Below are positions 22,900 through 48,645 of a DNA stretch of 64,000 nucleotides, piece by piece; the stretch's first letter is position 1, and each line of letters opens with the position of its first letter. The DNA is taken from positions 10,764 to 74,763 of the IMG/VR virus record IMGVR_UViG_3300047496_000204; one strand, given 5' to 3'. A model generated the notes under the pieces. The model was not told where the DNA came from and did no database searches. It saw only the letters and a list, made by a program, of their open reading frames with translations. Origin of the DNA: a virus. The translations under genes were made by a program, and so were the position numbers.

Positions 22900-23044
22900 T
22901 GGTGCGCCGACTTGGATTTGAACCAAGGACCAGACCGTTTGCGCCTTTTTTGGGATCGAACCAAAGATTAAATCCTAACCATAGAAAGGCATTCACTATT
23001 ACTTGTATGAGCGGTCGGCTCTAACCGGACTGAGCTACCGGCGC
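22900..23044 (-). tRNA. tRNA-Met/Ile2(CAT) with a 67-nt insertion at 37/38 (22939-23005)
   Basis: GACCG-CTCATA[insert]A-CGGTC; intact D arm, T arm and CCA. Confidence 0.8.
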
Positions 23045-23212: not shown

Positions 23213-23521
23213 TCAATCCATCCTACTGACTTCGAACGTTCCGTCAGGTTGAGTGATAGATACCCAAGCGTGTTCGTAGACACGAATGGTTTCATCGCGC
23301 AGCCTAGTTTCCCAGAGCACTCGTAGAGCGGGATCGCCAGGATATTGGATATTTCCATCTGAAAGCAGCTTAAAGCCGCTCATAGGGTTCCAGCCGCCAC
23401 CATAGGAATAATTATCTTCAATTTGTTTGGAGGCGGGACGAGCATCGAATTCTGCTATAAGATTTGGAATAAGTCCCAAATGATCCATAACAGCGGCGGG
23501 ATGAACTTTTTGCCAAATCAT
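23213..23521 (-). CDS. Hypothetical protein
   Basis: ORF with AAGG SD. Confidence 0.65.
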   Translation of the reverse strand: MIWQKVHPAAVMDHLGLIPNLIAEFDARPASKQIEDNYSYGGGWNPMSGFKLLSDGNIQYPGDPALRVLWETRLRDETIRVYEHAWVSITQPDGTFEVSRMD

Positions 23522-23996: not shown

Positions 23997-24226
23997 CGCA
24001 TCTTGAAATGAATGGCATCTTTTATCTCTTCAAAATAAAAAGTCCAATTATAAAAAAAATCTTTATTTGACGTATTAACAATTATTTTCCACGTATATCT
24101 AAAGTTATCGCAATTATCATGCGTCCATAGTTTCCACTCATGAAAATTCTCAAAATGGCGCGATTCAGTTCTTAAAATAATTTTATAAGGAAACCGTTCA
24201 GATTCTTTTGGAAGATAACGTCTCAT
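23987..24226 (-). CDS. Small-protein family member
   Basis: Ends DAIHFKMRWQ. Confidence 0.7.
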   Translation of the reverse strand: MRRYLPKESERFPYKIILRTESRHFENFHEWKLWTHDNCDNFRYTWKIIVNTSNKDFFYNWTFYFEEIKDAIHFKMRWQ

Positions 24227-24462
24227 TTCAGTTCAAATTTCAAATTTTCCAAAAAATCAGTTCCAGAAAGTTCTTCCAATGTAGAAATCTTTCTGCTTAG
24301 AAAAATTCTGCCGACAAATTCAGCCAGAACGTCAAAATGAATAGTTACTTCCATTGTTGGTGTTCCAATATGTTCATCATTATCCCACTCTCTGATAAGA
24401 ACACATGTAGGATCGCCATCATGGATGAAAACATAGTTTTCGATTTTTGTGGAATGACTCAC
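24223..24462 (-). CDS. Hypothetical protein
   Basis: Start moved to a GTG downstream of the tRNA it would otherwise overlap. Confidence 0.45.
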   Translation of the reverse strand: MSHSTKIENYVFIHDGDPTCVLIREWDNDEHIGTPTMEVTIHFDVLAEFVGRIFLSRKISTLEELSGTDFLENLKFELK

Positions 24463-24483
24463 AGTTTTGTCTTTCAAAAAAGT

Positions 24484-24614
24484 TGGTGCCCTCGGTCGGA
24501 TTCGAACCGACACTTGCGAGATTTTTGGGCGACGATTCCGGGTTTGCACCGTAATAGGGCGTGATTACCCTTTTCATCGAAGTCTCGTGCCTCTGCCAGT
24601 TGGGCTACGAGGGC
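24484..24614 (-). tRNA. tRNA-Leu (probably TAA after excision) with a 54-nt anticodon insertion (24526-24579)
   Basis: Leu-type D arm, CGAGA-CTT[insert]AAAA-TCTCG, CCA. Confidence 0.8.
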
Positions 24615-24800: not shown

Positions 24801-25088
24801 TTGTATTATGCAACTATGCAAAGAATTGTTTTGAAAAATTTACCAAGCATTCGAGAGAAGATGCTTTCGGAAACAAAAGAAACAATATCACCTCTTGGTT
24901 GGTGGAAATATACACCAGTCTTCAATGAAATATATGATTGGATGCAAGAAAATTGTAAAGGTAGATGGAAACAAGAATATGTTTGGTGTACCGAGCATCA
25001 CAATATTTTGAGTCCATATCATCAAGCAATAGGAATAAGATTTGATGATGACGCAGATGCAATATTTTTTAAATTGAGGTGGTCATGA
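24801..25088 (+). CDS. Small-protein family member
   Basis: Ends DAIFFKLRWS. Confidence 0.7.
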   Translation: MYYATMQRIVLKNLPSIREKMLSETKETISPLGWWKYTPVFNEIYDWMQENCKGRWKQEYVWCTEHHNILSPYHQAIGIRFDDDADAIFFKLRWS

Positions 25089-25387
25089 AAAAACTTAAAT
25101 TAAAGAATTTAGTTCGTAGAGAATTTTTAACAGAAGATCAACAAGAACTTGATATGTATGTGTGGAATACTGGTCGTAAATTGGAAACAATTGACAATTG
25201 GACCAGTATTCATGCTTGGTTAGACGAGAATGTCGGCCCAAAGTTTAAAGAAGGAAAAAATGAAGATGCCAAATGGTCGTGGGGGTGGGAAAGAAACCTT
25301 GATGAGGATGGATATTTTCAATCATCGGCGTGTTTTTATTTCACTGATTATGTAGATATGATTCATTTTAAGTTGAGGTGGGCATGA
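25085..25387 (+). CDS. Small-protein family member
   Basis: Ends DMIHFKLRWA. Confidence 0.7.
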   Translation: MKKLKLKNLVRREFLTEDQQELDMYVWNTGRKLETIDNWTSIHAWLDENVGPKFKEGKNEDAKWSWGWERNLDEDGYFQSSACFYFTDYVDMIHFKLRWA

Positions 25388-25388
25388 A

Positions 25389-25835
25389 ATGAATGTTCCT
25401 TCAATTAAAGATGCAACAACCGGTCGTGAATATTTTTACATGCCCGAAATAAATTTAAAGTGGTCAGATTTTTCTTATTGGATGCATTATAATATAGGTA
25501 CTCTTTTTCACGATTGGGATTGGCGTTATATTTCTTTAGATCGATCTATGTTTGTATGGTGCGCCAATCCATCAAATATTGAAATAATACAAAATAGATG
25601 GGTTAATAAATCTCTTTATCATATAAACACCACTTATATTTCGTATGACGAAGAATGGTTTGCTGAAAACAAAATTATATATGTGGTAGATGAAAATTTT
25701 GAAAATAGTCGAGCGGTGCAACATACCTGGATTAACTACCTAAATACAAATACTCATTATGTATTAAAAACTTTTTATAATTTAAGTTTTTCACATATTA
25801 ATGATATAATATTCTTCAAGATGCGATGGCAATAA
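25389..25835 (+). CDS. Small-protein family member (longer, possibly two repeats)
   Basis: Ends DIIFFKMRWQ. Confidence 0.7.
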   Translation: MNVPSIKDATTGREYFYMPEINLKWSDFSYWMHYNIGTLFHDWDWRYISLDRSMFVWCANPSNIEIIQNRWVNKSLYHINTTYISYDEEWFAENKIIYVVDENFENSRAVQHTWINYLNTNTHYVLKTFYNLSFSHINDIIFFKMRWQ

Positions 25836-27139: not shown

Positions 27140-28168
27140 TTAGTAAGCAAATTTCGATTTGAAATAATTCTTTTGGCTTCCGTTAAAAATTTCAGCGATA
27201 GTATATTCTTTTGCTTTTGTATCAAGTGTTTTACCAATAGATTTAGCGGCGGCTTGAGCTTCAATTTCGGTAAGAGGACGGAAATTCAAGACATCAAAAC
27301 ACCTACCAGGACGAAGAAAGGCTTCGTCAATTTTAGATGAATCTTTAATGTTAGCGGTGAAAATAAATTTCTTTTTTGAAAGTGGCACTAAACCATCCGC
27401 CGCATTCAAAATCTTGCTCATGGTAGCATTACTATCATGACCACGAGACCCAAGAATAAGATCGCTATCTTCAAGCATGAGATAGTTGAAATTTCTTGAT
27501 GAAATAAAAGTGATGTAGATTTCATCACCGGCCATGATGCTTTCGTCATATGTAGTCATTGCATTTTTACTAAAACGTTGCATTATGTATCGCAAAAAAG
27601 AAGTTTTACCAGTTCCAGGATCGCCTAATAACAGTAGAATGTTGGCAGAAGATTCGTCAAAATCTTTTATATATTGATCGACATCTTCTATCCATGGATA
27701 GAATTCTGGCCGGAAAATCATTTTTGTATCAATAGAAAAATCTGCATTCTGAATATTATTTCCAGCTTTATACCACCAAGTTAAAATAGGATTGGAACCT
27801 TCTTTAAAGTCATTAATTTTGTTGTAGAACTTTTCTAATACATTTACCGGACCATAAATATTAACCGTTGCTTCCCTTTTAATTTTAGTAAAAGGCTCTT
27901 CATTTGACATGAAAATCTCAATATATAAATTTTCATCATAAATCGTAATTTGACCTAATGCCGTATATTTCTTTACTTTTTCACTAAAGAAATTTCCGCA
28001 AATAGTTGAAACTGTATTGAAATAAGTATCAGTAAGAAATAGCATATCTATGCTAATATTGAATTCTGGATTATGAACTTCCATCCAATCATTAAACAAT
28101 TTTAAATGAAGCAGATCATCATTGGTGTTTTTATTATACGTAAAAACAGAAGCTATTTCAGTAGTCAT
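27140..28168 (-). CDS. AAA+ ATPase
   Basis: GDPGTGKT, LMLEDSD, FTAN and FLRPGRCFD (arginine finger). Confidence 0.9.
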   Translation of the reverse strand: MTTEIASVFTYNKNTNDDLLHLKLFNDWMEVHNPEFNISIDMLFLTDTYFNTVSTICGNFFSEKVKKYTALGQITIYDENLYIEIFMSNEEPFTKIKREATVNIYGPVNVLEKFYNKINDFKEGSNPILTWWYKAGNNIQNADFSIDTKMIFRPEFYPWIEDVDQYIKDFDESSANILLLLGDPGTGKTSFLRYIMQRFSKNAMTTYDESIMAGDEIYITFISSRNFNYLMLEDSDLILGSRGHDSNATMSKILNAADGLVPLSKKKFIFTANIKDSSKIDEAFLRPGRCFDVLNFRPLTEIEAQAAAKSIGKTLDTKAKEYTIAEIFNGSQKNYFKSKFAY

Positions 28169-28197
28169 TTTTTTCCATGTTTAAGTAAGAGATAGGG

Positions 28198-28271
28198 TAG
28201 ACTCGGAAGGACTTGAACCTTCAAAATACCAGCTTGATGCTGGCAGCGTATACCAATTCCGCCACGAGTCT
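28198..28271 (-). tRNA. tRNA-like gene with TCA anticodon (non-canonical A33/G38)
   Basis: AGACTCG/CGAGTCT acceptor, GCCAG-CATCAAG-CTGGT, canonical T arm. Confidence 0.55.
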
Positions 28272-28274
28272 ATA

Positions 28275-35570: not shown

Positions 35571-35660
35571 CAGGATGTAGCTCAGTCTGGCCGGAGCAGC
35601 GGTTTTGGAAACCGAAGGCGTGAAACGATTTCGTAGGTTCAAATCCTACCATCCTGACCA
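35571..35660 (+). tRNA. tRNA-Pro(TGG) with an enlarged variable region
   Basis: C1-G72, A73, CGGT-TTTGGAA-ACCG, CCA. Confidence 0.8.
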
Positions 35661-35729
35661 ATTTCTACCGAATGGAAATGTTCTTTATTTTTCATTCAGT
35701 TCTTTGACATCGTTAGAATATTTTAGTTG

Positions 35730-35848
35730 TATCTGGAAGCAATTCCAGGTATGGTTAATTTCTATCGTCAATTACGAATGGTTGCCCTAGTGGTATCCGA
35801 CAGTAATTGACGATAGAAATTAACTGTATCTGAGATTGCTTCCAGATA
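35730..35848 (+). repeat. 46-bp imperfect inverted repeat (long hairpin)
   Basis: Most substitutions retain G-U pairing on the plus strand. Confidence 0.85.
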
Positions 35849-35855
35849 TAAAATT

Positions 35856-36326
35856 CTAACTCTCTAAAGTGTTGGCAGGTGGCACATCCGGTTTGGGGCC
35901 GGGGGGCGCAGATTCGAATTCTGCTGGGGAGACCAAGTTTATTATAAAGTCTATAATAGATTGTAGAGACCCAAATCTCAAATCTATTTTATATTTTACG
36001 GAATCCATTTTTTCTTTACTTCTTTCAATGACTCTGTCATTTTTTGGATCAAGATATACGTTATATTTTGGTAAATAAAAGTCAGGGAAATAATTTCGCG
36101 GTTTTCCAGTAGAGTCAACCCAAGGTATAGGAATGGGTCGTGTCCAAACAATACCCAATTCATCAAGTTTTTCTGCAACTTTAACTTCCCAACTTGATTG
36201 TAAATTCACCGATTTATTCATATTTTTACAAAAATACGGAATAGACATGCATTTACCCCATTTATGTGTGATTGCAGATGCGGCGCATGATGCAGAACTT
36301 TTTATGCGTTTTCCATTGCAATTCAA
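35856..36326 (-). CDS. PD-(D/E)xK (TnsA-like) endonuclease domain
   Basis: YFPDFYLPKYNVYLDPK; probably one split gene together with 36323..36703. Confidence 0.7.
   Translation of the reverse strand: MNCNGKRIKSSASCAASAITHKWGKCMSIPYFCKNMNKSVNLQSSWEVKVAEKLDELGIVWTRPIPIPWVDSTGKPRNYFPDFYLPKYNVYLDPKNDRVIERSKEKMDSVKYKIDLRFGSLQSIIDFIINLVSPAEFESAPPGPKPDVPPANTLES
35860..35935 (+). tRNA. tRNA-Pro(TGG)
   Basis: CTCTCTA/TGGGGAG, TCCGG-TTTGGGG-CCGGG, CCA; antisense to the end of the endonuclease ORF. Confidence 0.75.
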
Positions 36327-36703
36327 ATGTGTTCAAACACGCGTATTATACGTTCAACTTTTATTTTTCCTTTAAACGGAGAAATTATTTTGAGACCTTT
36401 CATTTTTTTCGAAACATTTATTGCTTGTCTCGCTCTTACTTCTGGGCTTCGTCTTTTCATATTAAATGACGCTCCACAACTCTTTCCGCAGAATTTGTTT
36501 TCTTTATTAAATATTTGTGAATTGCATTCTAAGCAATATTTTTTATTTTCTTCTTTGTAAATACAAGATTTTTCATGTCTTTTAATACTACTCTTAGGAA
36601 TTTCGCATTCACAATGCGGGCATTGTTCTTTAATAGCGTTGGCTTTTAATCTCGCAGCATTAGCATTTTGAATATGTTGTTCTGATTTTTGATAATTACT
36701 CAT
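36323..36703 (-). CDS. Zinc-finger N-terminal half of the split endonuclease
   Basis: CPHC, CLEC and FCGKSC; ACTAAATA box at 36708-36715. Confidence 0.65.
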   Translation of the reverse strand: MSNYQKSEQHIQNANAARLKANAIKEQCPHCECEIPKSSIKRHEKSCIYKEENKKYCLECNSQIFNKENKFCGKSCGASFNMKRRSPEVRARQAINVSKKMKGLKIISPFKGKIKVERIIRVFEHI

Positions 36704-36808
36704 CTTCTATTTAGTCAGAAAAGACGGTTTCGAACCGACTATTTTGCGGACTTGATAAAATAAATATATTGACAAAATATCTTGATTTGGATAGCATATA
36801 TAAACTAT

Positions 36809-36881
36809 GCGGGATTGGTATATTGTTTGTGCCTCACCCTTCCAAGGTGATGAAATCAGTTAGATTCTGATATCCCGCTCC
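36809..36881 (+). tRNA. tRNA-Gly(TCC), atypical T loop
   Basis: GCGGGAT/ATCCCGC, U73, TCACC-CTTCCAA-GGTGA. Confidence 0.75.
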
Positions 36882-37048
36882 CATAAAGGTAAACAGATGA
36901 ATTTTGAATCTTTTGTAACTGCCGCAAGCTTGCTTTTTATTTTATTTGGTGTTATTATAGTTTGTAATCGTTAGAATCGTTTTAAAATGGGGAATCATGG
37001 ATGCCACTATTGAAAAATAGCGATGGTTAGGTATTGATCCATTTTTAA

Positions 37049-37236
37049 GTATAACCAGACGTCCTATGGTTATACATTTTCTACAGTAGAACGCACTCAA
37101 CTTCCACGATCCTAGACTGAACCGTGATTGACGGTGGAGAACTTGGTAGAAGTGTGAAAACCGGGTCAAATGGCGTAATCGCAAGATAGGCGTATATTGA
37201 CTTTGGGGCTCTGGGTGCGTTTTACTGTAGAAAATG
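37049..37236 (+). ncRNA. Unassigned structured RNA closed by a 25-bp stem
   Basis: 37075-37099 pairs with 37212-37236; upstream hairpin at 37049-37075. Confidence 0.5.
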
Positions 37237-37245
37237 ACGATCTAT

Positions 37246-37317
37246 ATGGACATAGCATTGTGGAATGCGGCGGCTCGCAAAGTTGCTTAACATGGTTCGA
37301 CTCCTTGTGTCCCTACC
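37246..37317 (+). tRNA. Degenerate tRNA-Cys(GCA)-like gene
   Basis: GCGGC-TCGCAAA-GTTGC, T arm; C33, A73 and an acceptor mismatch. Confidence 0.5.
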
Positions 37318-37386
37318 TTCATGCTGAAGATGTGTTTGTAAAATGCAAGCACGTCTTTGGCACCAAATAGAGAACGGAAAAGAAAA

Positions 37387-37560
37387 ATGATTATCAAAAT
37401 GAGTATTGGCGACACTGAATACGATCTTCGCATCAAAGAATTGGACGATGGTCGTTTCTATGTTACTTGCCAAAACCTTGAAGGCTTTCACTATTTGTTA
37501 GACGCGGATGAAACTTCGGAAGCAATTAAGCCTTCACTTATCGAGTTTCTGAATATTTGA
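37387..37560 (+). CDS. Small protein, weak HicB-like pattern
   Basis: IKELDDGRFYVTCQNLEG. Confidence 0.4.
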   Translation: MIIKMSIGDTEYDLRIKELDDGRFYVTCQNLEGFHYLLDADETSEAIKPSLIEFLNI

Positions 37561-37563
37561 TAT

Positions 37564-37675
37564 GCTGCGGTAGCTCAATGTTGCAAGGGCACTGTGTTTT
37601 CCCACAACCCCCAACGTGGTAGAGTGCTTACACGGAAAAGTAAGAGATGTGGTTCGAGTCCACCTAACAGCACCA
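37564..37675 (+). ncRNA. tRNA-like gene with an 8-nt anticodon loop and a D-loop insertion
   Basis: CTTAC-ACGGAAAA-GTAAG, T loop, ACCA; mismatched acceptor. Confidence 0.55.
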
Positions 37676-37685
37676 ATAGTTTTAT

Positions 37686-37774
37686 GCTGCGATAGCTGAA
37701 AATTGCAAAGGCAATGCGGTAGAGCGGTTCCCCGGAAAAGGAACAGATGTGGTTCGAACCCAACCACAGCACCA
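37686..37774 (+). ncRNA. Paralogous tRNA-like gene with an 8-nt anticodon loop
   Basis: GTTCC-CCGGAAAA-GGAAC, D-loop TTGC/GCAA hairpin, ACCA. Confidence 0.55.
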
Positions 37775-37979
37775 ATAAATAATTGACAAAATAATTGACA
37801 TGATGTATCAATTATTTATTGGATAAAGGAGATAATTTTATAAAGCGTGCATTTTTCTTTCCGGTTGCGCCGGTCCAGTTCACACTTCGGCTGGAGTAGA
37901 GGCGAAGCCATGTGTCTCATTAATGAAGAGCGCATTGATTCCGGATATGATGATGCGGAGTTAGACAAATATTATAAAT

Positions 37980-38059
37980 GCGGGTATAGCTCAGTCTGGT
38001 AGAGCGGAAGGTTTCCACCCTTCGTCATTGCACTGGTTCGAATCCAGTTACCCGCTCCA
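37980..38059 (+). tRNA. tRNA-Gly(TCC)
   Basis: GAAGG-TTTCCAC-CCTTC, U73, CCA. Confidence 0.88.
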
Positions 38060-38074
38060 GCCAAAAATTAACAT

Positions 38075-38147
38075 GGTCCCATAACTCAATGGTAGAGTGT
38101 CACATTGATAATGTGATTACGATTGTTCGATTCAATCTGGGACTACC
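38075..38147 (+). tRNA. tRNA-Ile(GAT)
   Basis: TCACA-TTGATAA-TGTGA. Confidence 0.85.
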
Positions 38148-38152
38148 TTTAT

Positions 38153-38242
38153 CGCGGAGTTGAGAAGTCCGGTCCATCTCACTGTCCTCATAAGGCAGCG
38201 GGCGTAATTGCCCTCACAGGTTCAAATCCTGTCTCCGCATCC
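38153..38242 (+). tRNA. tRNA(CAT), C1xA72, long variable arm (initiator-like)
   Basis: CTGTC-CTCATAA-GGCAG. Confidence 0.75.
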
Positions 38243-38291
38243 TTTTTCCGATTTTTATATACAAAATCGAACATATTTGCTATCAGTTTGA

Positions 38292-38369
38292 CGCGGGAAG
38301 GACAAGATAGTTAGTCACTTGCCTCATAAGCAAGACATCTGGAAGTTGCGAGCACTTCTCCCGCTCCCA
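38292..38369 (+). tRNA. tRNA(CAT), C1xU72, atypical T loop
   Basis: CTTGC-CTCATAA-GCAAG, CCA. Confidence 0.6.
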
Positions 38370-38392
38370 ATCTAAAAGGAAAAGAGGGAAAA

Positions 38393-38773
38393 ATGAGAAA
38401 GATTGCGATTATTTTAACTAGTAGTCGTTATGATGATTATGATAATTACCATATGATTATCAATTCTATCACGGATTGGCAGGAAGTTTCTGAAGAAGAT
38501 TACCGATTGCTAGATTCTTTTTCTTATGTAAAAGATTTTACAATTTTGGAGCAACCGATTGCTCCTAAGGATTACATTGGTAATACGATTGCAGAGTTTA
38601 GGGAATTAGCGAGAAAGCAAAAAGAAGAAGATGACGCGAGAATATTAGCTGAAGAAAAAAAGAAGCAGGCTCGTGCGGAAAAGAAAATTCTCAAAGAAGC
38701 TGAAACTCGCAAAGCATTGTTTGAAAAGCTTCAAGCAGAATTTGGTTCAAGTTCTCCAGTCAGCAATGGGTAA
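38393..38773 (+). CDS. Hypothetical protein
   Basis: GAGGG SD. Confidence 0.65.
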   Translation: MRKIAIILTSSRYDDYDNYHMIINSITDWQEVSEEDYRLLDSFSYVKDFTILEQPIAPKDYIGNTIAEFRELARKQKEEDDARILAEEKKKQARAEKKILKEAETRKALFEKLQAEFGSSSPVSNG

Positions 38774-38776
38774 AAA

Positions 38777-39178
38777 ATGGGAATTATCTACACACTGGTA
38801 AAACGTGATGTTCCAGAAGCTTTCGATCTTGGTAAGGGGCCTTGGGATATAGTTTTTGAACGAAAACATGGTTTTTCATTTTTTGCTAACAAAAATGGAA
38901 ATTTTGAAGAATCATTTAAAATTGAAGAAGCTAAATTGAGATCAAACATCAAGAAGTTTGGTCTTGAGCGTTGGTCTATTGATAATGACAAGTTGGTTCG
39001 AAGAATCACATCTTGGGCCAAAGATTCAGAAATATTTTTGATCAACTATTGGGAAGAGATTGAGTCTCTTCAGGAAGAAAATGATCGAGAAAATTTTGAC
39101 TTCCACGATCTCGATGATTTTTTGGTAGCTTCGCTTTTTGACTACAAAATCACGGCGTCAATATGGGAAGACAAATGA
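38777..39178 (+). CDS. Hypothetical protein
   Basis: ORF only. Confidence 0.6.
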   Translation: MGIIYTLVKRDVPEAFDLGKGPWDIVFERKHGFSFFANKNGNFEESFKIEEAKLRSNIKKFGLERWSIDNDKLVRRITSWAKDSEIFLINYWEEIESLQEENDRENFDFHDLDDFLVASLFDYKITASIWEDK

Positions 39179-39248
39179 GACAAAGAGCCTATTGGGTCGG
39201 CATCTGCTGGGTGCGCCAAGGAAGCTCGATCCTCTGCGGAGGATCAAT

Positions 39249-39322
39249 GGTTCTATAACTCAATGGTAGAGTGGCAGGCTCATAACTTGCTCATCTTGGT
39301 TCGATTCCAAGTAGAACCTCCA
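39249..39322 (+). tRNA. tRNA-Met/Ile2(CAT)
   Basis: GCAGG-CTCATAA-CTTGC, CCA; D arm matches the Ile(GAT) gene. Confidence 0.85.
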
Positions 39323-39408
39323 AAATCCTACAGAAGTCGCCAAAAAACGTTTGACAAAGTTTATTTTCGGTCTATATTTTAATTCTCAATTTAAATAGGA
39401 TTGAAAAA

Positions 39409-39918
39409 ATGGGCACAAGATCGGATATTATCGTTGAACATGCTGATGGCAAGTTCAAGAGAATTTACTGTCATTGGGATGGATATCTGGAAGGTGTTGG
39501 TCAAACACTTTTTTCTCATTACAATAGTCAAGAGCGCGCTGAAGCGGTAGTTGCGCCGGGTGATATGTCATCCTTGGCAGAAAGATGTGATGGGGAGCCT
39601 GGACATTCCTTCGATAATAACGTCAAGGGTCAAACCGTGTATTATGGTCGGGATCGTGGCGAAACAGAAATGGACGGCGTAGTTGGTGATACACTCGTTT
39701 CTGTTTGGCCGTCAGAGGGCACTTGGACGGAATTCACTTATGTTTGGACACAAGGTCGCTGGTGGGTCGCAGATGCCGATGAAGGTTCACAAGCCCTTCA
39801 TAGTCTGGAAGATGCCTTGAAGGGCGATGATCGTCCTACACCCTTGCCTTGGGTGATCCCGAGTAGGGACCGAGGACCGGGATCGAGGCCCGGCTTGTCC
39901 ACCAAAATAATATATTGA
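39409..39918 (+). CDS. IYCHWDGY-type protein, paralog 2
   Basis: Similar to 34538..34966; upstream TTGACA. Confidence 0.75.
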   Translation: MGTRSDIIVEHADGKFKRIYCHWDGYLEGVGQTLFSHYNSQERAEAVVAPGDMSSLAERCDGEPGHSFDNNVKGQTVYYGRDRGETEMDGVVGDTLVSVWPSEGTWTEFTYVWTQGRWWVADADEGSQALHSLEDALKGDDRPTPLPWVIPSRDRGPGSRPGLSTKIIY

Positions 39919-40037
39919 CTATTTCTCAAATAGTTAGTAAATACATATATGATATTAGTTGTGTTTCTTATCGTCAGTATAGCAGTCGGCCTTTCGGGGG
40001 CTGTTATGAGACGATGTAGGAAACATTTCTAATAAAT

Positions 40038-40113
40038 GGCCCTTTCGCCAAATGGGAAGGCATCGCTTTTACACGGCGACATTGAGTTGGTTCGATTCCA
40101 ACAAGGGCTACCA
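40038..40113 (+). tRNA. tRNA-Val(TAC)
   Basis: TCGCT-TTTACAC-GGCGA, CCA. Confidence 0.85.
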
Positions 40114-40126
40114 TTTTTAAGTTTAT

Positions 40127-40202
40127 TCCATCCAAAGCACAAGGTGTGCTGGCTCACTGTTAATGAGTATCGAGCCCAGTTCGATTCTGGGGGATGGAGC
40201 CA
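40127..40202 (+). tRNA. tRNA-Asn(GTT)
   Basis: U1-A72, G73, CTCA-CTGTTAA-TGAG, CCA. Confidence 0.8.
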
Positions 40203-40276
40203 GACTGCGACAGTATGTCGCATGCTATTACATAGCCTTACATGAAAGGTTTCGAACATAGAAGATAAATACTTCT

Positions 40277-41254
40277 ATGGAAACTTGTAGTATATGTAGT
40301 AAAACATTTAAGAATTCATTAGCATTAAGTGGTCATTCTCGGTGGCATAAAACCACCATATACAAAGAACCTATATTTGATTATTCTGTGTCATGTATTT
40401 TTACCAAAAAGAAAATGCACATCACTCGATGGGAAGACTATCAAAATAGGGTGAGAAACTGCCAATGCTGTAAAAAATTATTTGAGAAAATTGGTAATAC
40501 TTCTGGCCTCTTTTGTTCTAAAAGTTGTTCTGCCACCGAAAATAATAAAAAAAGAGAACCTGTATCAGATAAACAAAAACAAAAGACATCAAATGCCTTA
40601 AAAACCTATTTTGATAATCACGGAGGCCGACAGTGGTCAACAACACATAAAACAAAAATTGAAAATTATAAATATAATTTTATTTCTGTAAATTTTTCTA
40701 CTTGTATATGTGGAAAAATCTTCTTGAGCAAAGGCAAAAATTGGAAGCCAAAGAAACACTGTTCGACAAATTGTCGAAACGAAGCTCTAAGTGAAAATAG
40801 AATCAAATTTCTTCAAGAAAATGGAACGTCTAATTTTTCTACAAGAATTCCTGGATTTTGTTATAAAAACATAACCATCGATTGTGATTCAAAATTGGAA
40901 GCCGCTGCGGTTCAATATTTAATAGATGTTAAATCCGCATCTCATATCGAACGCTGTGAAAGCATTGTGAATTTCTATGATAAACATGGAAAACATCATA
41001 GATTTTTACCTGATTTTTTTGTGAGAATAGACTATAAAAGTTATATTGTTGAAGTAAAACAGGTTTACAGAAAATCAAGTTATATTGGAGATTACAATCA
41101 ATATTTTGAGGAAAAAAAGAAAGCGTTGTTGAAGTTTTGTGATGAAAAAAATTTAGAGATGTTGTGGTTAGATTTCGATTATGATAAATTGTTCGAAAAG
41201 ATGTATAGAAAGTTTTTGAAAGAAAATTGTGTTAAAATGTGCGGACGAAATTGA
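40277..41254 (+). CDS. Zinc-finger plus PD-(D/E)xK (TnsA-like) endonuclease in the tRNA array
   Basis: C2H2 finger, several CxxC/FCSKSC repeats, RFLPDFFV...IVEVK; GATAAATA at 40264-40271. Confidence 0.8.
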   Translation: METCSICSKTFKNSLALSGHSRWHKTTIYKEPIFDYSVSCIFTKKKMHITRWEDYQNRVRNCQCCKKLFEKIGNTSGLFCSKSCSATENNKKREPVSDKQKQKTSNALKTYFDNHGGRQWSTTHKTKIENYKYNFISVNFSTCICGKIFLSKGKNWKPKKHCSTNCRNEALSENRIKFLQENGTSNFSTRIPGFCYKNITIDCDSKLEAAAVQYLIDVKSASHIERCESIVNFYDKHGKHHRFLPDFFVRIDYKSYIVEVKQVYRKSSYIGDYNQYFEEKKKALLKFCDEKNLEMLWLDFDYDKLFEKMYRKFLKENCVKMCGRN

Positions 41255-41440
41255 GTTTCATTCCTCGACCCTAAAAGGTGACTAATGATTACTGAAAAAC
41301 AAAGAGACCGGATTTTCGATGAATGGCTTGAAAGAGAATTCGAAGAAGAATTGATAGATAATCCAATTCTTTGGCCTTTAACGACATCTTTTGCGTATTG
41401 TTTGATACGAAATGAAGACGAATCTCTTCATTGATTTTAT

Positions 41441-41514
41441 GGACATGTAGCTCATTGGTAGAGCATCGCACTGAAAATGCGAGTGTAAGTGGTTCGATTC
41501 CACTCTTGTCCACC
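41441..41514 (+). tRNA. tRNA-Phe(GAA)
   Basis: TCGCA-CTGAAAA-TGCGA. Confidence 0.9.
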
Positions 41515-41599
41515 GGGGAAGGCCCGCTACTTACACGCCAGATTCGTCCAGCGTTAGTTCAACGTAGAACATCCCCCTATTTTTATGTTGAAAGTTTTA

Positions 41600-41673
41600 T
41601 GAAGGTTGCCTCTTGGTGAGGCAGCGGTCCTTTGAAGTCCGCCAGCTTGGTTCGAACCCAAGACCTTCATCCA
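41600..41673 (+). tRNA. tRNA-Gln(TTG)
   Basis: U1-A72, CGGTC-CTTTGAA-GTCCG, CCA. Confidence 0.7.
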
Positions 41674-41677
41674 ATAT

Positions 41678-41753
41678 TCAGGGATAGTTCAATTGGTAGA
41701 ACATCGCTTTTTGGTAGCGAGTGTTGAGAGTTCGAGTCTTTCTCCCTGAGCCA
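41678..41753 (+). tRNA. tRNA-Gln(TTG)
   Basis: U1-A72, G73, TCGCT-TTTTGGT-AGCGA, CCA. Confidence 0.85.
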
Positions 41754-41755
41754 AA

Positions 41756-42412
41756 TCAAAAAATTATCTCGTTTAGAGGAATTTCTTTTTCAATTACTGA
41801 ATTGCCGGAAAAAGAAATAGTGGAACACATTTTCATCATTTCTTCTTCTTTACTGGATGATGTTAAAATTAATTGTGAATGTCTAATGCATGGAAGCATA
41901 CTTGTCCAAAAATCTTTTATTTTGGTTGGATTAGCCACTTCATAATCGTCTACTATTACCATGCTCAATGAAAGCCCCCGACCGGTAGTATCGGAAACAC
42001 TTCTAACAAGAAGCTGGCTATGGTTATCAAATTTCATTGAGCTTAAGTTGTATTCAGTTATTCCTTTTCTAAGAAAAATTGGAAGATTATCATACATAAT
42101 TTTTATAATATGAAGTTTTTCTTTTGCGCTTGCGACACTATTTCCGCAAAGCAATATAGTTTGATCTGAATTAAACATTGTCTTCCAAACAAGAAAAGCA
42201 CAAAGAGCAGAGGTTTTACCACTTTGTCTTGGTAATTCGAATGACAGTGTTCGATTTTCGCTATCGAGTTTGTTTATAATAATTTCTTGTTTAAAGGTAA
42301 GGTTCATCGGAACTAACCCTCTTATAAGATGCGACAATTTAATGTATGTGTTGATAAAATATACAGGATTAATTGCACATTTAGCGAATTCTTCTTCTAA
42401 TGATAATGACAT
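41756..42412 (-). CDS. Stand-alone terminase-large-subunit ATPase domain paralog, no nuclease domain
   Basis: KCAINPVYFINTY, LPRQSGKT and GRGLSLSMVIVDDY; 218 aa; GATAAATA at 42440-42447. Confidence 0.85.
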   Translation of the reverse strand: MSLSLEEEFAKCAINPVYFINTYIKLSHLIRGLVPMNLTFKQEIIINKLDSENRTLSFELPRQSGKTSALCAFLVWKTMFNSDQTILLCGNSVASAKEKLHIIKIMYDNLPIFLRKGITEYNLSSMKFDNHSQLLVRSVSDTTGRGLSLSMVIVDDYEVANPTKIKDFWTSMLPCIRHSQLILTSSSKEEEMMKMCSTISFSGNSVIEKEIPLNEIIF

Positions 42413-42583
42413 TTTTTCTCTAAAATTAACGTTGTATATTATTTATCTACAAGGTCTCCATCACCAATAACGATGGAGCGCAAGTCTCTTGATACGAGGG
42501 CAAGAGGGCCGTGAATATTTCGGTTGACACTTCTTCGAACTATGTTATCTTATGAAAATAATTTGACGCATAGGAGAAACATC

Positions 42584-42850
42584 ATGTCTGAACTTGCAAC
42601 ACTGGTTGAAGAAGTTCAAATTTCCAAGAAGGAATATTTGGAATATCTTGAGGAACATGGTTCCACGAGTAATACTGAACGTTATAAGGAACTTTCGAAG
42701 CCGTCGTATCGGAAGCCGCTAGTCAATCGCGTCTATCGTGCTGTTCGAGCGTTGAGCGATTATATGCAGAAGGAAACTGGACTGACTTCTTATCAATTCA
42801 GTGATCTTTTTTCGAGTTATGGATATATGGGTAATCCGGACGAGGAATAG
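42584..42850 (+). CDS. Hypothetical protein
   Basis: AGGAG SD. Confidence 0.65.
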   Translation: MSELATLVEEVQISKKEYLEYLEEHGSTSNTERYKELSKPSYRKPLVNRVYRAVRALSDYMQKETGLTSYQFSDLFSSYGYMGNPDEE

Positions 42851-42894
42851 AGAAAATGTTCACGCGCTTGGCGTGAAATTTAGAGGAATTTTAA

Positions 42895-43416
42895 ATGACT
42901 TACGATGAAGCTATTGCGATTTTGACTCAATTTTGTGCCAAAATTGACGGTCTGACATTTAGTCAATGTGAAGTTGGTGTTGGTCGGCCAGCAGTTGCTT
43001 TATTCTTGGATGACAAGATTCTTCACTACAATTTTTGGACGTATGATAGTTCTACTGGTGATTTCATTAGCCCATTTCCAGAGGAAATGGAAATTGATGT
43101 TCCGGATGGAGTTAATGCCTATCACAAGGATAATTTCATTGCCGTGTTAATTGGGGAAGGTCAAATCAATATTGAACGAAGTGTTATTCCATTGATTCAA
43201 GCTCTCAACGGCGAAAATCCGGATACGATCTTGGCGAATATGCCTGAAGAAGAAACTCAAGACCAAGAAACCTTGGAAGAAGCCTTCAAGCAGTTGGCTA
43301 TCTGGTGTTTGTCTATGAAAAAACAACAAATTGAAATTGCGATATATACAGACACCAATCAGAGCTATGGTCCTGGAAATAGTGCTATTCCGATTGTTGT
43401 AAAAATCTTGGAGTAA
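42895..43416 (+). CDS. Hypothetical protein
   Basis: GAGGA SD. Confidence 0.7.
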   Translation: MTYDEAIAILTQFCAKIDGLTFSQCEVGVGRPAVALFLDDKILHYNFWTYDSSTGDFISPFPEEMEIDVPDGVNAYHKDNFIAVLIGEGQINIERSVIPLIQALNGENPDTILANMPEEETQDQETLEEAFKQLAIWCLSMKKQQIEIAIYTDTNQSYGPGNSAIPIVVKILE

Positions 43417-43471
43417 ATTTTAAAAATCGTTTGACAATAGTTAGAACTATGTTATCTTGATTAAGTAATCA

Positions 43472-43600
43472 GTTCGGCGGCGGGACGACGACTCCGTAAG
43501 TCCGCAGAACTACTCTACCAGGGTGAGGAGAAGTTGGAGTCGGGTGGATGCCCTGGGGCTGTAATGGCTTTCCCACTTCTCCTCTCCCAGGGCCGATAGT
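43472..43600 (+). ncRNA. GC-rich structured leader with a possible pseudoknot
   Basis: GCGGGAC/GTCCGC hairpin whose loop GACTCC (43490-43495) complements GGAGTC (43536-43541). Confidence 0.4.
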
Positions 43601-43777
43601 TGAATAAAAAGGAGATTGATATGTCCAAGGAAGAAATTATTCAGTTTTTGAAGGATAATCTTACTATTCATCTTGAAGTGGAGGATTATGGTTCTAGCAA
43701 CCAAGTTAATATTAAGTTGTGTTTAGATGGAGAAGAAATTTCTTCCACCTTCCAATATATTTCAAAGGGTGAATAAT

Positions 43778-44017
43778 ATGTGTGAATGTTACAATATCGA
43801 TCATCCCGGCTTCGATCCGGCTTGCCCACTTCATGGTATTAACGGTATTTACCAGCGAGAAAGTGAATCCGAAGCTGCGTTCGAACGCTGGTGGCTTACT
43901 CAAGAACAGCAGTCTCAAGTGCCGATTTCTGAAGAACACCGCGCTGTTCTCAATATTTTTCGTAAGGTTTCTTGGAACGCTTGGCAAGCGGCTATTTCTT
44001 ATATGGCAGATGCGTGA
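43778..44017 (+). CDS. Hypothetical protein
   Basis: ORF only. Confidence 0.5.
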   Translation: MCECYNIDHPGFDPACPLHGINGIYQRESESEAAFERWWLTQEQQSQVPISEEHRAVLNIFRKVSWNAWQAAISYMADA

Positions 44018-44517
44018 TGCAAAATATTTTCATCGTAGTCGCATATGGCGGCCAATATGAAAACGCTTGGGGATCAATATCGGCAGCTTTCACTGATAGA
44101 TCATCGGCCGAGGCGTATATTCTTTATAAAGAAGATTTAGCGCAACGCATTTATCAAAAAGAAGTTTTGTTGGCTGCTTTTTATGAGAAGTATGAAGCGG
44201 AAAATCCGCGCCCGCCACGTGCAGTTCAACATGTTCTTCCACGTTGGAGATCGGGAATGTCCGAAAAAGATATTACCCCCGAGATGCGGACGGAACGAAC
44301 ACGTCTTTTCGATCTAAATAGCAAACTTGCGGAAGAAGCAAGCATCGCTTACGAAATATATGAAGAAACTTTACTTGCGGCTCAACAACAATATGCCGAG
44401 GCTGGTGGTATCGATTCTCCTGATCGAATCGTTAGGTATGCCAATATGCCAGATGTTCGTTGGCGTATCGATGAAAATTTTCTGCATTCTTCTTTCGATC
44501 CTATTCACTTTCATTAG
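44017..44517 (+). CDS. Hypothetical protein
   Basis: ORF only. Confidence 0.6.
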   Translation: MQNIFIVVAYGGQYENAWGSISAAFTDRSSAEAYILYKEDLAQRIYQKEVLLAAFYEKYEAENPRPPRAVQHVLPRWRSGMSEKDITPEMRTERTRLFDLNSKLAEEASIAYEIYEETLLAAQQQYAEAGGIDSPDRIVRYANMPDVRWRIDENFLHSSFDPIHFH

Positions 44518-44835
44518 GAAATATCTGATGGAAACTGTTTTAAAAGAACCAATTCTTCGTGATGATCACCCGATTTATGCGGATTATATTTACATTGCTG
44601 ATGGAAAAGTTTACATTTCGGATTGAAATTACGGTTCGAGAACTAAAGTCGAGAGAAGGTTTTACGGAAATCCGGAGATGCGATATATATGGCCGTAATC
44701 TCGGACATAAAATACAGAAAGAAGAAACAGATGTATCTTTCCCATTTCCAGAAAGAATTGCTCCTAAGCCTATTAGAGTGAAAAAGGCTGGAAAACATGG
44801 TAAGGTAAAGATTAAGAATAGATTTAAATTTAAAT

Positions 44836-44990
44836 GCCGGTTTAGCTCATTTGGTAGAGCGCCTGTTTGGAGGAAAGTGATCAGTGATCAGTGATCATAG
44901 AACATATCACCAGTGGATATGATGGTGCAAATCCAGAATCCTCAAAATTGTAATCAGGGGGCGGCAAGTTCGAAACTTGCAACCGGCGCC
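44836..44990 (+). tRNA. tRNA-Thr (GGT or TGT depending on the junction) with an approximately 80-nt anticodon insertion
   Basis: GCCGGTT/AACCGGC, CCTGT-TT[insert]TGTAA-TCAGG; insert contains AGTGATC x3. Confidence 0.8.
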
Positions 44991-45515
44991 CTAATAACTT
45001 TTTCCTTCGCTATATCTTTGGCGGCGAAACGCCCTGCCATTTCCAATATTCAATGCTTTAAAAGTTGGAGTTTGTGAATGACAATTTGGACAAAGCAATG
45101 TCGTGTTTTCTCGTGAATGATCATCGGAATTACCATTGATGTGTTCAATTTCCAAATATATAGGTAAATTATTCCAAGTAGTGTTTAAGCATTTCTGACA
45201 TTGATGCCCAAGTTCTTCTACGAGTTGTTTTTTCCTGCGCTTGGATGACCAAACAGAATTAGGGTTATTTTTAAATAATTCCCATTTATTTTTAAAGAAA
45301 CATCGTTGTGAGCAATATATTTGTCTCTGAGAATAGATAATAGTGCTACAATGTAGGCAAATTCCGTTCTCTTTATTTTTTCTAATTTTTTTATTTTTTG
45401 TTTTTGTAATCGATTTAGTTATTTTTGAAATTCTTTTAGTATTATTTACTGATGCCGAGCAAGAACGATTGCAAAAAATATTTCCATGTTTTCTTTTTTC
45501 ATAAGGAATTATCAT
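44991..45515 (-). CDS. HNH homing endonuclease
   Basis: LEIEHINGNSDDH...LLCPNCHSQT; the frame stays open upstream through a C2H2-like finger without a canonical start. Confidence 0.88.
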   Translation of the reverse strand: MIIPYEKRKHGNIFCNRSCSASVNNTKRISKITKSITKTKNKKIRKNKENGICLHCSTIIYSQRQIYCSQRCFFKNKWELFKNNPNSVWSSKRRKKQLVEELGHQCQKCLNTTWNNLPIYLEIEHINGNSDDHSRENTTLLCPNCHSQTPTFKALNIGNGRAFRRQRYSEGKSY

Positions 45516-45796
45516 TTTACAATGCAGACAATGATCAGTTTTTAATCCATATTTTTCTTCCGCTGTCAGTAATTTGAACGTAGGATCAAGTTTTCTTTGA
45601 TGGCGATATAAAGATTTTTGGGCTGAATATGATTTTTGCGGTTGACAACAATTACATTTAAATCTAATATCTCCTTATATTCGAAAAGGAGATAATCATG
45701 ATGAATTTGAACGAACTGGTCTTTATGCTGGTGTTTTAGGTGAAATGTCTCCGCTCCAAACTCTTGGTGCGAGACTTCTTTTGGAGGGTTGGTAAA

Positions 45797-46174
45797 ATGA
45801 CAAATTACAATGAAATAGTTGATACCGTTTTGGCGGCTCCAGCGGATGCGCGTGTTTTTGTTCTGAAGGGAATTTTCTCTGATTCTGAACGGAATTTCAA
45901 TCTTCTTTTGCTGGATTGTATGTTAGAACGCCTTCAAGTATGGCCTTATCGAGATTCTGTTACCAGTTTGGTTAGTAATGAAATACATTCTGAACGATTA
46001 AATGAAATCGTTGATTTTCTTTTGGATTCATCTCGGGAAGCCAGATTTTATGCTTTGAAGGGTATTCTGGTTGAGTATTCTACTAACAGTTTTCTTGTTC
46101 TGTTGGCTCATAATTTGATTTCTCGGCTGGCGTTTCAGAAGTTCAACCTGGACAAGAATGTGGAATGTCTGTAG
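45797..46174 (+). CDS. Hypothetical protein with two internal repeats
   Basis: EIVDTVL...ARVFVLKGI and EIVDFLL...ARFYALKGI. Confidence 0.6.
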   Translation: MTNYNEIVDTVLAAPADARVFVLKGIFSDSERNFNLLLLDCMLERLQVWPYRDSVTSLVSNEIHSERLNEIVDFLLDSSREARFYALKGILVEYSTNSFLVLLAHNLISRLAFQKFNLDKNVECL

Positions 46175-46357
46175 CAGGTTTTCATGACATTCAAATTGGC
46201 GATATAATTGAATGTCATGATAAAGAACAAGAAGCTTTACCTGCAACGATTTCCTGGGAAATTGTAAAGGCAAAAGGTTTGACCTTAGACTTGAAGGGTA
46301 AATTATTTTAAAGAAAACTGTTGACAATATTACCTATTTTGGATAATATACACAAAT

Positions 46358-46636
46358 GGTAGTGACAAGAAGAAAAGAGCTAAGCCCAGAAGTAGTTGCA
46401 GCGAAATTGGGCTAACATCTTAATATTCTGGCTCACATGACTCTGCAAAGTCCCTGGATCGTGTCCAGGCTACCGAACATTAGAATTACTTGCCCGTCCT
46501 ACTGTTTCCGATGGTAGGGCGGGCGAGAGAAGGAATTTAGCAGAATTGCTAAATGCGTTCCCGCTCTGTGAAAACATCGGGCTTGGCGGCGATCTGATAA
46601 CCATCAGAAACTATTCTGTGGCAGATCGTTGTCAAC
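46358..46636 (+). ncRNA. Unassigned multi-hairpin RNA preceding tRNA-Ala
   Basis: TTGACA-N17-TAATAT promoter at 46321-46349; at least five stems; no ORF with a credible start. Confidence 0.5.
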
Positions 46637-46638
46637 TT

Positions 46639-46775
46639 GTGGCCTTAGCTCATCTGGAAGAGCGTCTGCCTTGGGAGAAAGCGGCTTATGGTCGTAGTTC
46701 AGTAATGACGGTGCAAATCCGGAATCTCCGTGAAGCACGCAGAAGGTGGTCGGTTCGAGCCCGACAGGCTACACC
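46639..46775 (+). tRNA. tRNA-Ala(TGC) with a 62-nt anticodon insertion (46674-46735)
   Basis: G3-U70 pair, TCTGC-CTTG[insert]CAC-GCAGA. Confidence 0.85.
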
Positions 46776-47410
46776 TTTTTCTTTTCTTGAATACGTTTCA
46801 GGCGTAAAGTTCTTCCGTTGCCTTTGTTTAGACTACCATAATTTGGAGTAAGACTATGGCAACTAGGACAAATTAATTCAAGATTTTCTGATTTATTATT
46901 ACTCCAATTTCCATCGATATGATTTACTTGAAGGGGAATTTTTCCTGTTGTTGGGTGTATTTCAGCCCAACCGCATTTTTTACATTTTGTATTATATTTT
47001 TCAAATAACCATTTTCGAATGTAAGTGGACACTTGACCTTCGCCTGTTATCCCATCTTCTATACCAGAAAGCCATTTATCAATAAAATTTTTATATTGAT
47101 AATTAGATTGACATTGCGGCCCACAATATTTTACAATTGTTTTTCTTTTTGGTATTTCTTTTTCGCATGAAGCACAGAAATTAACAGTTCTTCTCTTTTG
47201 ATTGTTGTATTCTGCTGAACAACTATGATTACAAAAATTATTCCTACGGTTTTCATATTCTATCAAACTATTGCAATTTCTACATAATTTTGGAGAATTG
47301 AGATATTTTGATTTAAGTTCTTGAGAATTTCTTTTTGCTGTCTGAATACAGATTTCAAAAAATTTATTATTTTCTGGTTTATTTTGTGGTCTTTTTGATA
47401 ATTTGCTCAT
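46769..47410 (-). CDS. HNH homing endonuclease
   Basis: LQVNHIDGNWSNNKSENLELICPSCHSLT; CATAAATA box at 47416-47423. Confidence 0.9.
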   Translation of the reverse strand: MSKLSKRPQNKPENNKFFEICIQTAKRNSQELKSKYLNSPKLCRNCNSLIEYENRRNNFCNHSCSAEYNNQKRRTVNFCASCEKEIPKRKTIVKYCGPQCQSNYQYKNFIDKWLSGIEDGITGEGQVSTYIRKWLFEKYNTKCKKCGWAEIHPTTGKIPLQVNHIDGNWSNNKSENLELICPSCHSLTPNYGSLNKGNGRTLRLKRIQEKKKV

Positions 47411-48099: not shown

Positions 48100-48191
48100 A
48101 AAAACAACTAAAAGATTCTAACGAAATAGTGGGTTGACAGCCTAAATATTTGTGATATCTTATGCTTATAAAGCATAAGGAGATAATAAAC

Positions 48192-48404
48192 ATGAAGCTG
48201 ATGATTCAAATCAAGGTCACTCCTGAAGATGCGCGAAAGTTCATCAATAACATGGTGAGTCAGGGATATGAAGATGTTCTCGAACCCGTTACGCCGTGGC
48301 GAGAAGATCATTCTTTTCGGCTTGATGGTGTAACGTCTGCTGACTATTCGATCGTCTTCTTCGAAGAAGACGATATCGCATTTATTGGAGTTCGTCCCCA
48401 ATGA
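48192..48404 (+). CDS. Hypothetical early protein
   Basis: TTGACA promoter, AAGGAG SD. Confidence 0.6.
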   Translation: MKLMIQIKVTPEDARKFINNMVSQGYEDVLEPVTPWREDHSFRLDGVTSADYSIVFFEEDDIAFIGVRPQ

Positions 48405-48645
48405 GTAAGCCAGACGCATATATAAGAGCAGTTATAGTTTCAGGTAACGGTATATATTAAGATGTCGGTAATACTTCAATAAATCTTTCTAATTTCTAGT
48501 TTACTGATTTCTTTCAAGTTTACGCCAATATTACCTGATATTTGACAATCTTCTAAATTGTTAATTATTATTTTCATGATTGGCTCCAGTGTTATCTCAT
48601 ATTTATTTGACTTGCAAATTTGGTTGCAAACTGATAAATTAATTT

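Follow-up and report, generated by a model that had tools for sequence, protein, structure and literature searches.

What are nuclease genes doing at the edges of transfer RNA (tRNA) genes in a phage tRNA array, and are they connected with the short insertions in the anticodon loops of two of these tRNAs? These questions are raised by a stretch of 64,000 nucleotides (nt), positions 10,764 to 74,763 of the IMG/VR virus record IMGVR_UViG_3300047496_000204, which is called the window below. We consider it probable that the four nuclease genes found there are homing endonuclease genes of the free-standing type, specialised for phage tRNA arrays, that they spread by cassette homing, and that the tRNA inserts are a separate matter. 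CheckV puts the completeness of the 134.5-kb source record at ~26%, which makes it a fragment from a huge phage; it comes from a moss metagenome, and only moss-metagenome DNA runs, with no RNA run, are listed among the sequencing runs containing the window. ARAGORN with intron detection called 33 tRNAs in the record, all of them within the window and arranged as two blocks, one on the minus strand (22.5-30.1 kb) and one on the plus strand (35.5-48.1 kb); four of the 33 bear inserts. A first-pass annotation of the window had described antisense endonuclease open reading frames (ORFs) that end on or within tRNA-Pro, tRNA-Thr and tRNA-Ala, a fourth one following tRNA-Asn, and anticodon inserts in the Thr and Ala genes. 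The ARAGORN calls and the ORF coordinates confirmed this arrangement, the two inserts measuring 80 and 62 nt. The units at tRNA-Thr and tRNA-Ala consist of the following features:

44835 to 44991, plus strand: tRNA-Thr, with anticodon GGU or UGU depending on the splice point (ARAGORN with intron detection)
44871 to 44950, plus strand: 80-nt anticodon-loop insert of tRNA-Thr (ARAGORN; insert fold)
44991 to 45668, minus strand: HNH endonuclease gene convergent with tRNA-Thr (Pfam, PHROG, tblastn of relatives)
46639 to 46775, plus strand: tRNA-Ala(UGC), with G3:U70 present (ARAGORN with intron detection; sequence)
46674 to 46735, plus strand: 62-nt anticodon-loop insert of tRNA-Ala(UGC) (ARAGORN with intron detection)
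46769 to 47410, minus strand: HNH endonuclease gene, 213 amino acids, convergent with tRNA-Ala (Pfam HNH_3, PHROG, alignment)

The stop codon of the HNH gene at tRNA-Thr (Thr-HNH; TAG at 44991-44993) lies 0-2 nt past the 3' end of the tRNA, and that of the gene at tRNA-Ala (Ala-HNH; TAG at 46769-71) lies in the 3' acceptor strand of tRNA-Ala, producing an overlap of 7 nt. Default ARAGORN missed both tRNAs, and an Rfam scan of the window gave no match at either of these insert-bearing positions. Both proteins matched PHROG HNH families at about E = 1e-20. The Pfam HNH match reached 21.1 bits, or 22 bits together with neighbouring in-frame matches, at a cut-off of 21.4; Ala-HNH matched Pfam HNH_3 above the cut-off (25.6 bits) and a PHROG HNH family at E = 3e-21. 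The two proteins are 33% identical. Both carry the catalytic His, the conserved Asn and the paired CxxC zinc ligands, and the H, N and C positions were invariant in HNH alignments of 30 and 25 sequences. A six-frame scan of the 134.5-kb record found HNH domains in these two ORFs only, and no match to GIY-YIG (PF01541) was found anywhere in the record. The ATG-started ORF of Thr-HNH covers 44991-45515 (174 amino acids). Its relatives (219-245 amino acids) aligned over 44994-45662 in one open frame by tblastn, and this frame stays open to 45668, where no ATG, GTG or TTG is found and an ATT stands two bases after an AAGGAG box. The unit of tRNA-Thr and HNH gene is flanked exactly by a perfect 11-nt inverted repeat, TAGATTTAAAT, with arms at 44819-44829 and 45656-45666. 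These arms are the only two exact copies within the window, and the repeat may mark a cassette boundary or may be a product of chance in AT-rich DNA.

Of the four endonuclease genes, those at tRNA-Thr and tRNA-Ala are HNH, and the genes at 35856 and 40277 were assigned instead to the PD-(D/E)xK nucleases, more securely for 40277-41254 than for 35856-36326, where only PHROG families speak for membership. The features concerned are as follows:

40277 to 41254, plus strand: PD-(D/E)xK nuclease with fused C2H2 and FCS-type zinc modules, 325 amino acids (motif, model)
35856 to 36326, minus strand: split nuclease gene, C-terminal half; PD-(D/E)xK-like core at residues ~30-110 (PHROG, weak alignment)
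36323 to 36703, minus strand: N-terminal half of the split gene, with zinc modules including an FCGKSC motif (translation, local match)
35860 to 35935, plus strand: tRNA-Pro(UGG), copy 2, whose D-arm is weak and whose CCA is encoded (ARAGORN; read by eye)

ORF 40277-41254 begins 74 nt after tRNA-Asn (40127-40202) and encodes a C2H2 finger at the N-terminus, two FCS-type zinc modules and, at the C-terminus, a nuclease domain in which an E...D(F)...EVK motif (E208, D246, E259 and K261) was invariant across seven homologues. Its predicted structure had a predicted local distance difference test score (pLDDT) of 84, and its best fold matches, namely Bax1 (top, E = 2.6e-3), TnsA (probability 1.0, TMq 0.54), the R2 endonuclease domain and RecU, were all PD-(D/E)xK nucleases, none of them reaching E <= 0.001. 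ORF 35856-36326 matched PHROG resolvase and endonuclease families (E = 4e-12 to 1e-7) and aligned weakly to the nuclease core of the 40277 protein. The neighbouring ORF 36323-36703, with a 4-nt overlap, matched the 40277 protein locally (E = 2e-4), and the two ORFs probably represent one gene, frameshifted or in two parts, which we read as split by a frameshift. A PDB sequence search with both PD-(D/E)xK proteins returned nothing useful. The last 25 codons of ORF 35856-36326 run antisense through the whole of tRNA-Pro(UGG) copy 2, a tRNA that was called by ARAGORN and had no Rfam match at E <= 1. Two side observations concern these tRNA-Pro genes: copy 1 (35571-35660) has ~15 extra nt in its variable region, and an inverted repeat with 49-nt arms (88% complementary) lies between the two copies at 35727-35851.

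In the 134.5-kb record, the motif FCxxSCSAxxNN was confined to the two HNH genes and ORF 40277, and a degenerate copy lay in ORF 36323. The four nuclease genes therefore share an FCS-type zinc module, presumably DNA-binding, across two catalytic folds.

Is the close abutment of these genes and tRNAs more than tight packing? Within the window alone, abutment is not special to nucleases, since non-nuclease antisense ORFs show it too. Within the plus-strand array, each of the five minus-strand gene units stops no more than 8 nt from the 3' end of a tRNA; among them are the unclassified ORF 48108-48419 and a terminase fragment, and gaps of 70-230 nt remain at the 5' ends of these units. The terminase fragment, which stops 2 nt from the 3' end of tRNA-Gln (41678-41753), is described as follows:

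41756 to 42412, minus strand: terminase large-subunit ATPase-domain fragment, 218 amino acids (Pfam Terminase_6N; PHROG E = 2.5e-38)

These neighbours fit the view that abutment merely reflects convergent gene ends in a compact genome, with no targeting involved. The wider HNH family makes this view very improbable. Alignments of relatives yielded >500 matches in IMG/VR viral contigs, from which ~160 loci were fetched and 140 unique genes retained. In this set, 88 of the 140 genes (63%) stopped within 60 nt of a tRNA, compared with 109 of 653 (17%) for other ORFs of at least 100 amino acids in the same loci (odds ratio 8.4, p = 9e-27). The docked tRNAs were also strongly biased: 31 of the 88 were tRNA-Thr(UGU), which makes up 8.7% of all tRNAs in the loci (p = 2e-13). 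Most docked genes (74/88) lay at the 5' end of a tRNA on their own strand, in many cases with an overlap of up to 15 nt, and the other 14 were convergent at the tRNA 3' end as in the window, mainly with Thr(UGU), Ala(UGC) and Leu(UAA). Docking at tRNA edges is thus a trait of the HNH family beyond chance.

The closest relatives of the window genes dock in the same way. All four nearest homologues of Thr-HNH (45-60% identity over the aligned regions) were convergent with tRNA-Thr and ended 3-36 nt from its 3' end, and in all four cases the tRNA-Thr had no insert (the one in locus L180, not called by ARAGORN, was read by eye from the sequence). One close homologue of Ala-HNH converged on a tRNA-Ala(UGC) lacking an insert, 14 nt away, another followed an insert-less tRNA-Ala, and two more abutted the 5' end of tRNA-Thr. 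The first-pass annotation had proposed that the inserts protect the resident tRNA from the adjacent HNH enzyme and spread together with it; relatives that dock identically on insert-less tRNA-Thr and tRNA-Ala speak against this proposal.

Evidence on movement came from cultured phages. Members of the HNH family were found in T5-like phages, Cronobacter phage GAP32, Xanthomonas phage XbC2, Agrobacterium phage Atu_ph07, Enterococcus phage iF6 and others. In the T5-like phage HdH2, the stop codon of the HNH gene (43.5% identity to Ala-HNH over 57% of the query) reaches into the first base of tRNA-Thr. Of 434 matching T5-like records, only seven contained the HNH gene; the rest, including T5, matched in two pieces separated by a clean ~390-nt gap, and the empty site was a 10-nt spacer 5' of tRNA-Thr. 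The three aligned tRNA-Thr alleles of HNH-bearing T5-like phages had a common, fully recoded anticodon stem, and a different stem was present in three of four fully HNH-less alleles, phage smaug being the exception. HNH-linked and most HNH-less alleles differed almost only in this compensated recoding of the anticodon stem (L191, L194-L200), which may reflect immunity to the nuclease or escape from a host tRNA-cleaving defence. Enterococcus phage iF6 has the HNH gene together with a wholly different tRNA-Thr body at the position where phage CCS1 has an AAA-ATPase ORF and another tRNA-Thr allele, and the flanks of the swapped slot are 99-100% identical. Both patterns fit a nuclease that would target the tRNA gene and travel with a resistant allele, and they agree with what has been published on the behaviour of SegB of phage T4 and on where the F-Tfl HNH genes of T5 lie. 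The reading of the window genes as free-standing homing-type endonuclease genes in a phage tRNA cluster is supported by a family tied to tRNA edges in hundreds of phage contigs and by presence and absence of one member among T5-like phages.

The iF6 locus had been considered as an example of convergent docking and was rejected as such, since ARAGORN places its HNH gene on the same strand as the tRNAs; by the same calls, the iF6 record (L193, GenBank MT909815) has its tRNAs annotated on the wrong strand, and it leaves the HNH gene at positions 41124-41615 unannotated. An AAA ATPase ORF is also found in the window (27140-28168, minus strand), where its stop codon lies 7 nt before tRNA-Ile(UAU) on the same strand. 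Together with the CCS1 gene (L322:119-1210), it raises the possibility that gaps in tRNA arrays recurrently house AAA ATPases as well.

The sporadic presence of the HNH gene in T5-like phages also bears on the suggestion that such nucleases are domesticated helpers, retained because breaks in the array drive tRNA recombination and copy-number change that counter host tRNA-cleaving defences. The window array does contain duplicated Pro, Gln, Gly and Met tRNAs, and SegB is reported in a 2026 paper (PMC13096335) to promote segmental amplification of anti-defence tRNA loci. Presence in seven of 434 records looks selfish rather than selected, and among the four window genes one is split and another lacks a canonical start, so that both look impaired; we therefore regard domestication as quite improbable.

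We then turn to the inserts themselves. Besides tRNA-Thr and tRNA-Ala, two further tRNAs in the window were insert-bearing:

24484 to 24614, minus strand: tRNA-Arg(UCG) with a 54-nt insert of the Thr/Ala family (ARAGORN with intron detection)
22900 to 23044, minus strand: fourth insert-bearing tRNA, with a 67-nt insert (ARAGORN with intron detection)

The Thr, Ala and Arg inserts have in common the core GGTGCAAAYCCRGAAT and a 5-bp closing helix that covaries (GAGGA/TCCTC, GGAGA/TCTCC and GATGA/TCGTC). A pattern scan of metagenome contigs found six further copies at five independent loci, in Leu(CAA), His(GUG), Ala(UGC) (two copies, in related contigs) and Arg(UCG) (two copies), which added the compensated helices GCTTA/TAAGC, GGTGA/TCACC and GGGGA/TCCCC. 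The covariation was read by eye and not counted, because MAFFT misaligned the 5' strand of the closing helix in the short copies. By these compensated helices the inserts are a real structured RNA family, found repeatedly in the same tRNA species with unrelated exons around it. An exact 17-mer of the core had 13 matches in IMG/VR, none of which was in a tRNA, and the idea that the core is a hammerhead junction or the T-loop of a cobalamin riboswitch was discarded, no such Rfam family being found at E <= 1. Other phage tRNAs (L036, L040, L045, L051, L068 and others) have anticodon-loop inserts of 40-110 nt that resemble an acceptor/T-arm minihelix with an NCCA-like tail after it, a design that differs from the window family. 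A tRNA that would read UGA (anticodon UCA) was observed at 28195-28272 (minus strand) and in another contig (L252:1637-1711) that also carries the insert family.

Do the inserts and the nucleases belong together? In collaborative homing, the HNH enzyme would cut the insert-less tRNA allele at the anticodon region, and the insert would protect its host gene and be co-converted with the nuclease. The adjacency of nuclease gene and insert-bearing gene on which this account builds is present here, and the geometry fits, since the insert lies ~40 nt from the HNH stop codon at both tRNA-Thr and tRNA-Ala. In this genome, an insert-bearing tRNA stands next to each of the two HNH genes (Fisher p = 0.011, post hoc), and the anticodon-stem differences among T5-like phages hint at a target of the family in that region. 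In addition, Rfam RF00028 detected group I introns above threshold in phage tRNA genes at L102:2596-2795, L108:3506-3706, L038:2858-3330 and L114:1580-1774; a family HNH gene lies 9 to ~150 nt from the intron-bearing tRNA in the first three, which is the classical layout, and ~1.1 kb away in L114.

The co-distribution of insert and nuclease across genomes that collaborative homing implies was absent. Only two of the 88 docked tRNAs had any predicted insert, which does not exceed the background (46/1175 overall), and an HNH gene adjoined five of 41 mini-insert tRNAs compared with 222 of 1129 insert-less ones (odds ratio 0.57, p = 0.31); the correlation expected by the first-pass annotation was thus not seen. 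The core motif had no copy in the ~996 kb around family HNH genes. Seen from the insert side, the family occurs without an adjacent nuclease six times, at the five independent loci and at tRNA-Arg of the window. None of the loci of the six further copies contained a homologue of any of the four nucleases; three of the copies have other tRNAs as neighbours, 9-11 nt away, and no nuclease domain was seen in the ORFs beside the remaining ones. At tRNA-Arg 24484-24614, the whole-record scan gave no HNH or GIY-YIG match nearby, and no Pfam or PHROG family was found in the neighbours 23213-23521, 25079-25387 and 25389-25835, the overlapping ORF 24223-24549 not having been scanned. These results make collaborative homing unlikely for the window genes, and it is distinctly doubtful that the mini-inserts protect tRNA genes by splitting an anticodon-arm target of adjacent or incoming nucleases. 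We nevertheless leave insert-mediated immunity a small but appreciable probability, because of the adjacency at p = 0.011, the hint from the T5-like alleles and the three group I intron loci. By their distribution the mini-inserts are independent of the nucleases, and their adjacency here is most likely a coincidence or a lineage-specific accident.

On the reading that we prefer, free-standing homing endonucleases that move as cassettes, the FCS-type zinc modules would presumably serve DNA recognition. In a co-infecting phage lacking the gene, the enzyme would recognise conserved tRNA-gene DNA and cut in or beside the tRNA gene, and recombinational repair would then copy the nuclease gene and the neighbouring tRNA allele as one cassette. 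The resident tRNA would be spared by a divergent allele or by an insertion that breaks the site. We propose that the gene stands flush against the tRNA boundary because it was copied in as such a nuclease-plus-tRNA cassette after a cut. The inserts in tRNA-Thr and tRNA-Ala would belong to a separate structured mini-intron family that occurs in phage tRNAs with or without nuclease neighbours.

Several points weigh against this reading. We infer the cleavage target, and homing itself, of the four genes from their sequences and those of their relatives. The gene at tRNA-Pro is split and Thr-HNH has no canonical start at its conserved N-terminus, so that some nuclease copies may be decaying. Presence and absence were seen for the T5-like member; for the window's own genes, megablast of 14 kb of the window against GenBank phages gave no match, and probing with the neighbour proteins 45740-46174 and 43972-44517 found no close relative of the window phage that could serve as an empty site. 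The docking counts (88/140) come from loci de-duplicated by sequence only and are inflated by related phages. Finally, both window HNH genes adjoin insert-bearing tRNAs in an array where four of 33 tRNAs bear inserts, an adjacency that pure coincidence explains only moderately well.

Known systems show a similar arrangement. The SegB gene of phage T4 is also a free-standing nuclease gene amid phage tRNA genes; its product targets tRNA-gene DNA, recognising the T-psi-C motif, and the gene is inherited with flanking tRNA genes (PMC2330249). SegB is a GIY-YIG enzyme, whereas the window genes encode HNH and PD-(D/E)xK nucleases with FCS-type zinc modules; they would resemble SegB in behaviour, and by their domains they are not members of the GIY-YIG Seg endonucleases. 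The F-TflI/II/IV genes of T5 are HNH genes within the phage tRNA cluster (Akulenko et al. 2004, as cited in PMC2330249 and PMC10644984). The HdH2 homologue of Ala-HNH is likewise flush against tRNA-Thr; this T5-like gene lies on the same strand as the array, whereas the window HNH genes are antisense to it.

In the collaborative homing of T4 mobE and I-TevIII, a free-standing HNH gene adjoins a gene with an ORF-less insert (PMC2790892), as in the window. The inserts of 54-80 nt in the window are, however, far too small for group I introns, their splicing is hypothetical, and they are not co-distributed with the nuclease. Another case of collaborative homing is reportedly cyanophage psbA, with an ORF-less group I intron and a neighbouring free-standing endonuclease. 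Short "enigmatic" anticodon-loop inserts, whose removal mechanism is unexplained, have been described in Lak megaphage tRNAs including tRNA-Thr (Devoto et al. 2019, PMC6784885); that paper reports no endonuclease link, and the likeness to the window inserts is one of description only.

The system is of an already known kind, free-standing homing endonucleases with SegB-like and F-Tfl-like behaviour in a tRNA array; modestly new are the family-wide measurement of docking, the preference for tRNA-Thr, the zinc module across two folds and the independence of the mini-introns. With the mini-introns separated from the nucleases in this way, how they move and how they are removed has to be explained otherwise. 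Protection by the inserts, if true, would provide a selective reason for phage tRNA introns and a new cooperation between a non-group-I intron and a nuclease. Together, the results point to a widespread zinc-module HNH family and a module-sharing PD-(D/E)xK relative that specialise in phage tRNA gene edges, those of tRNA-Thr foremost, and movement of nuclease-plus-tRNA cassettes would help to explain the mosaic tRNA arrays of phages and the odd tRNA alleles beside nuclease genes.

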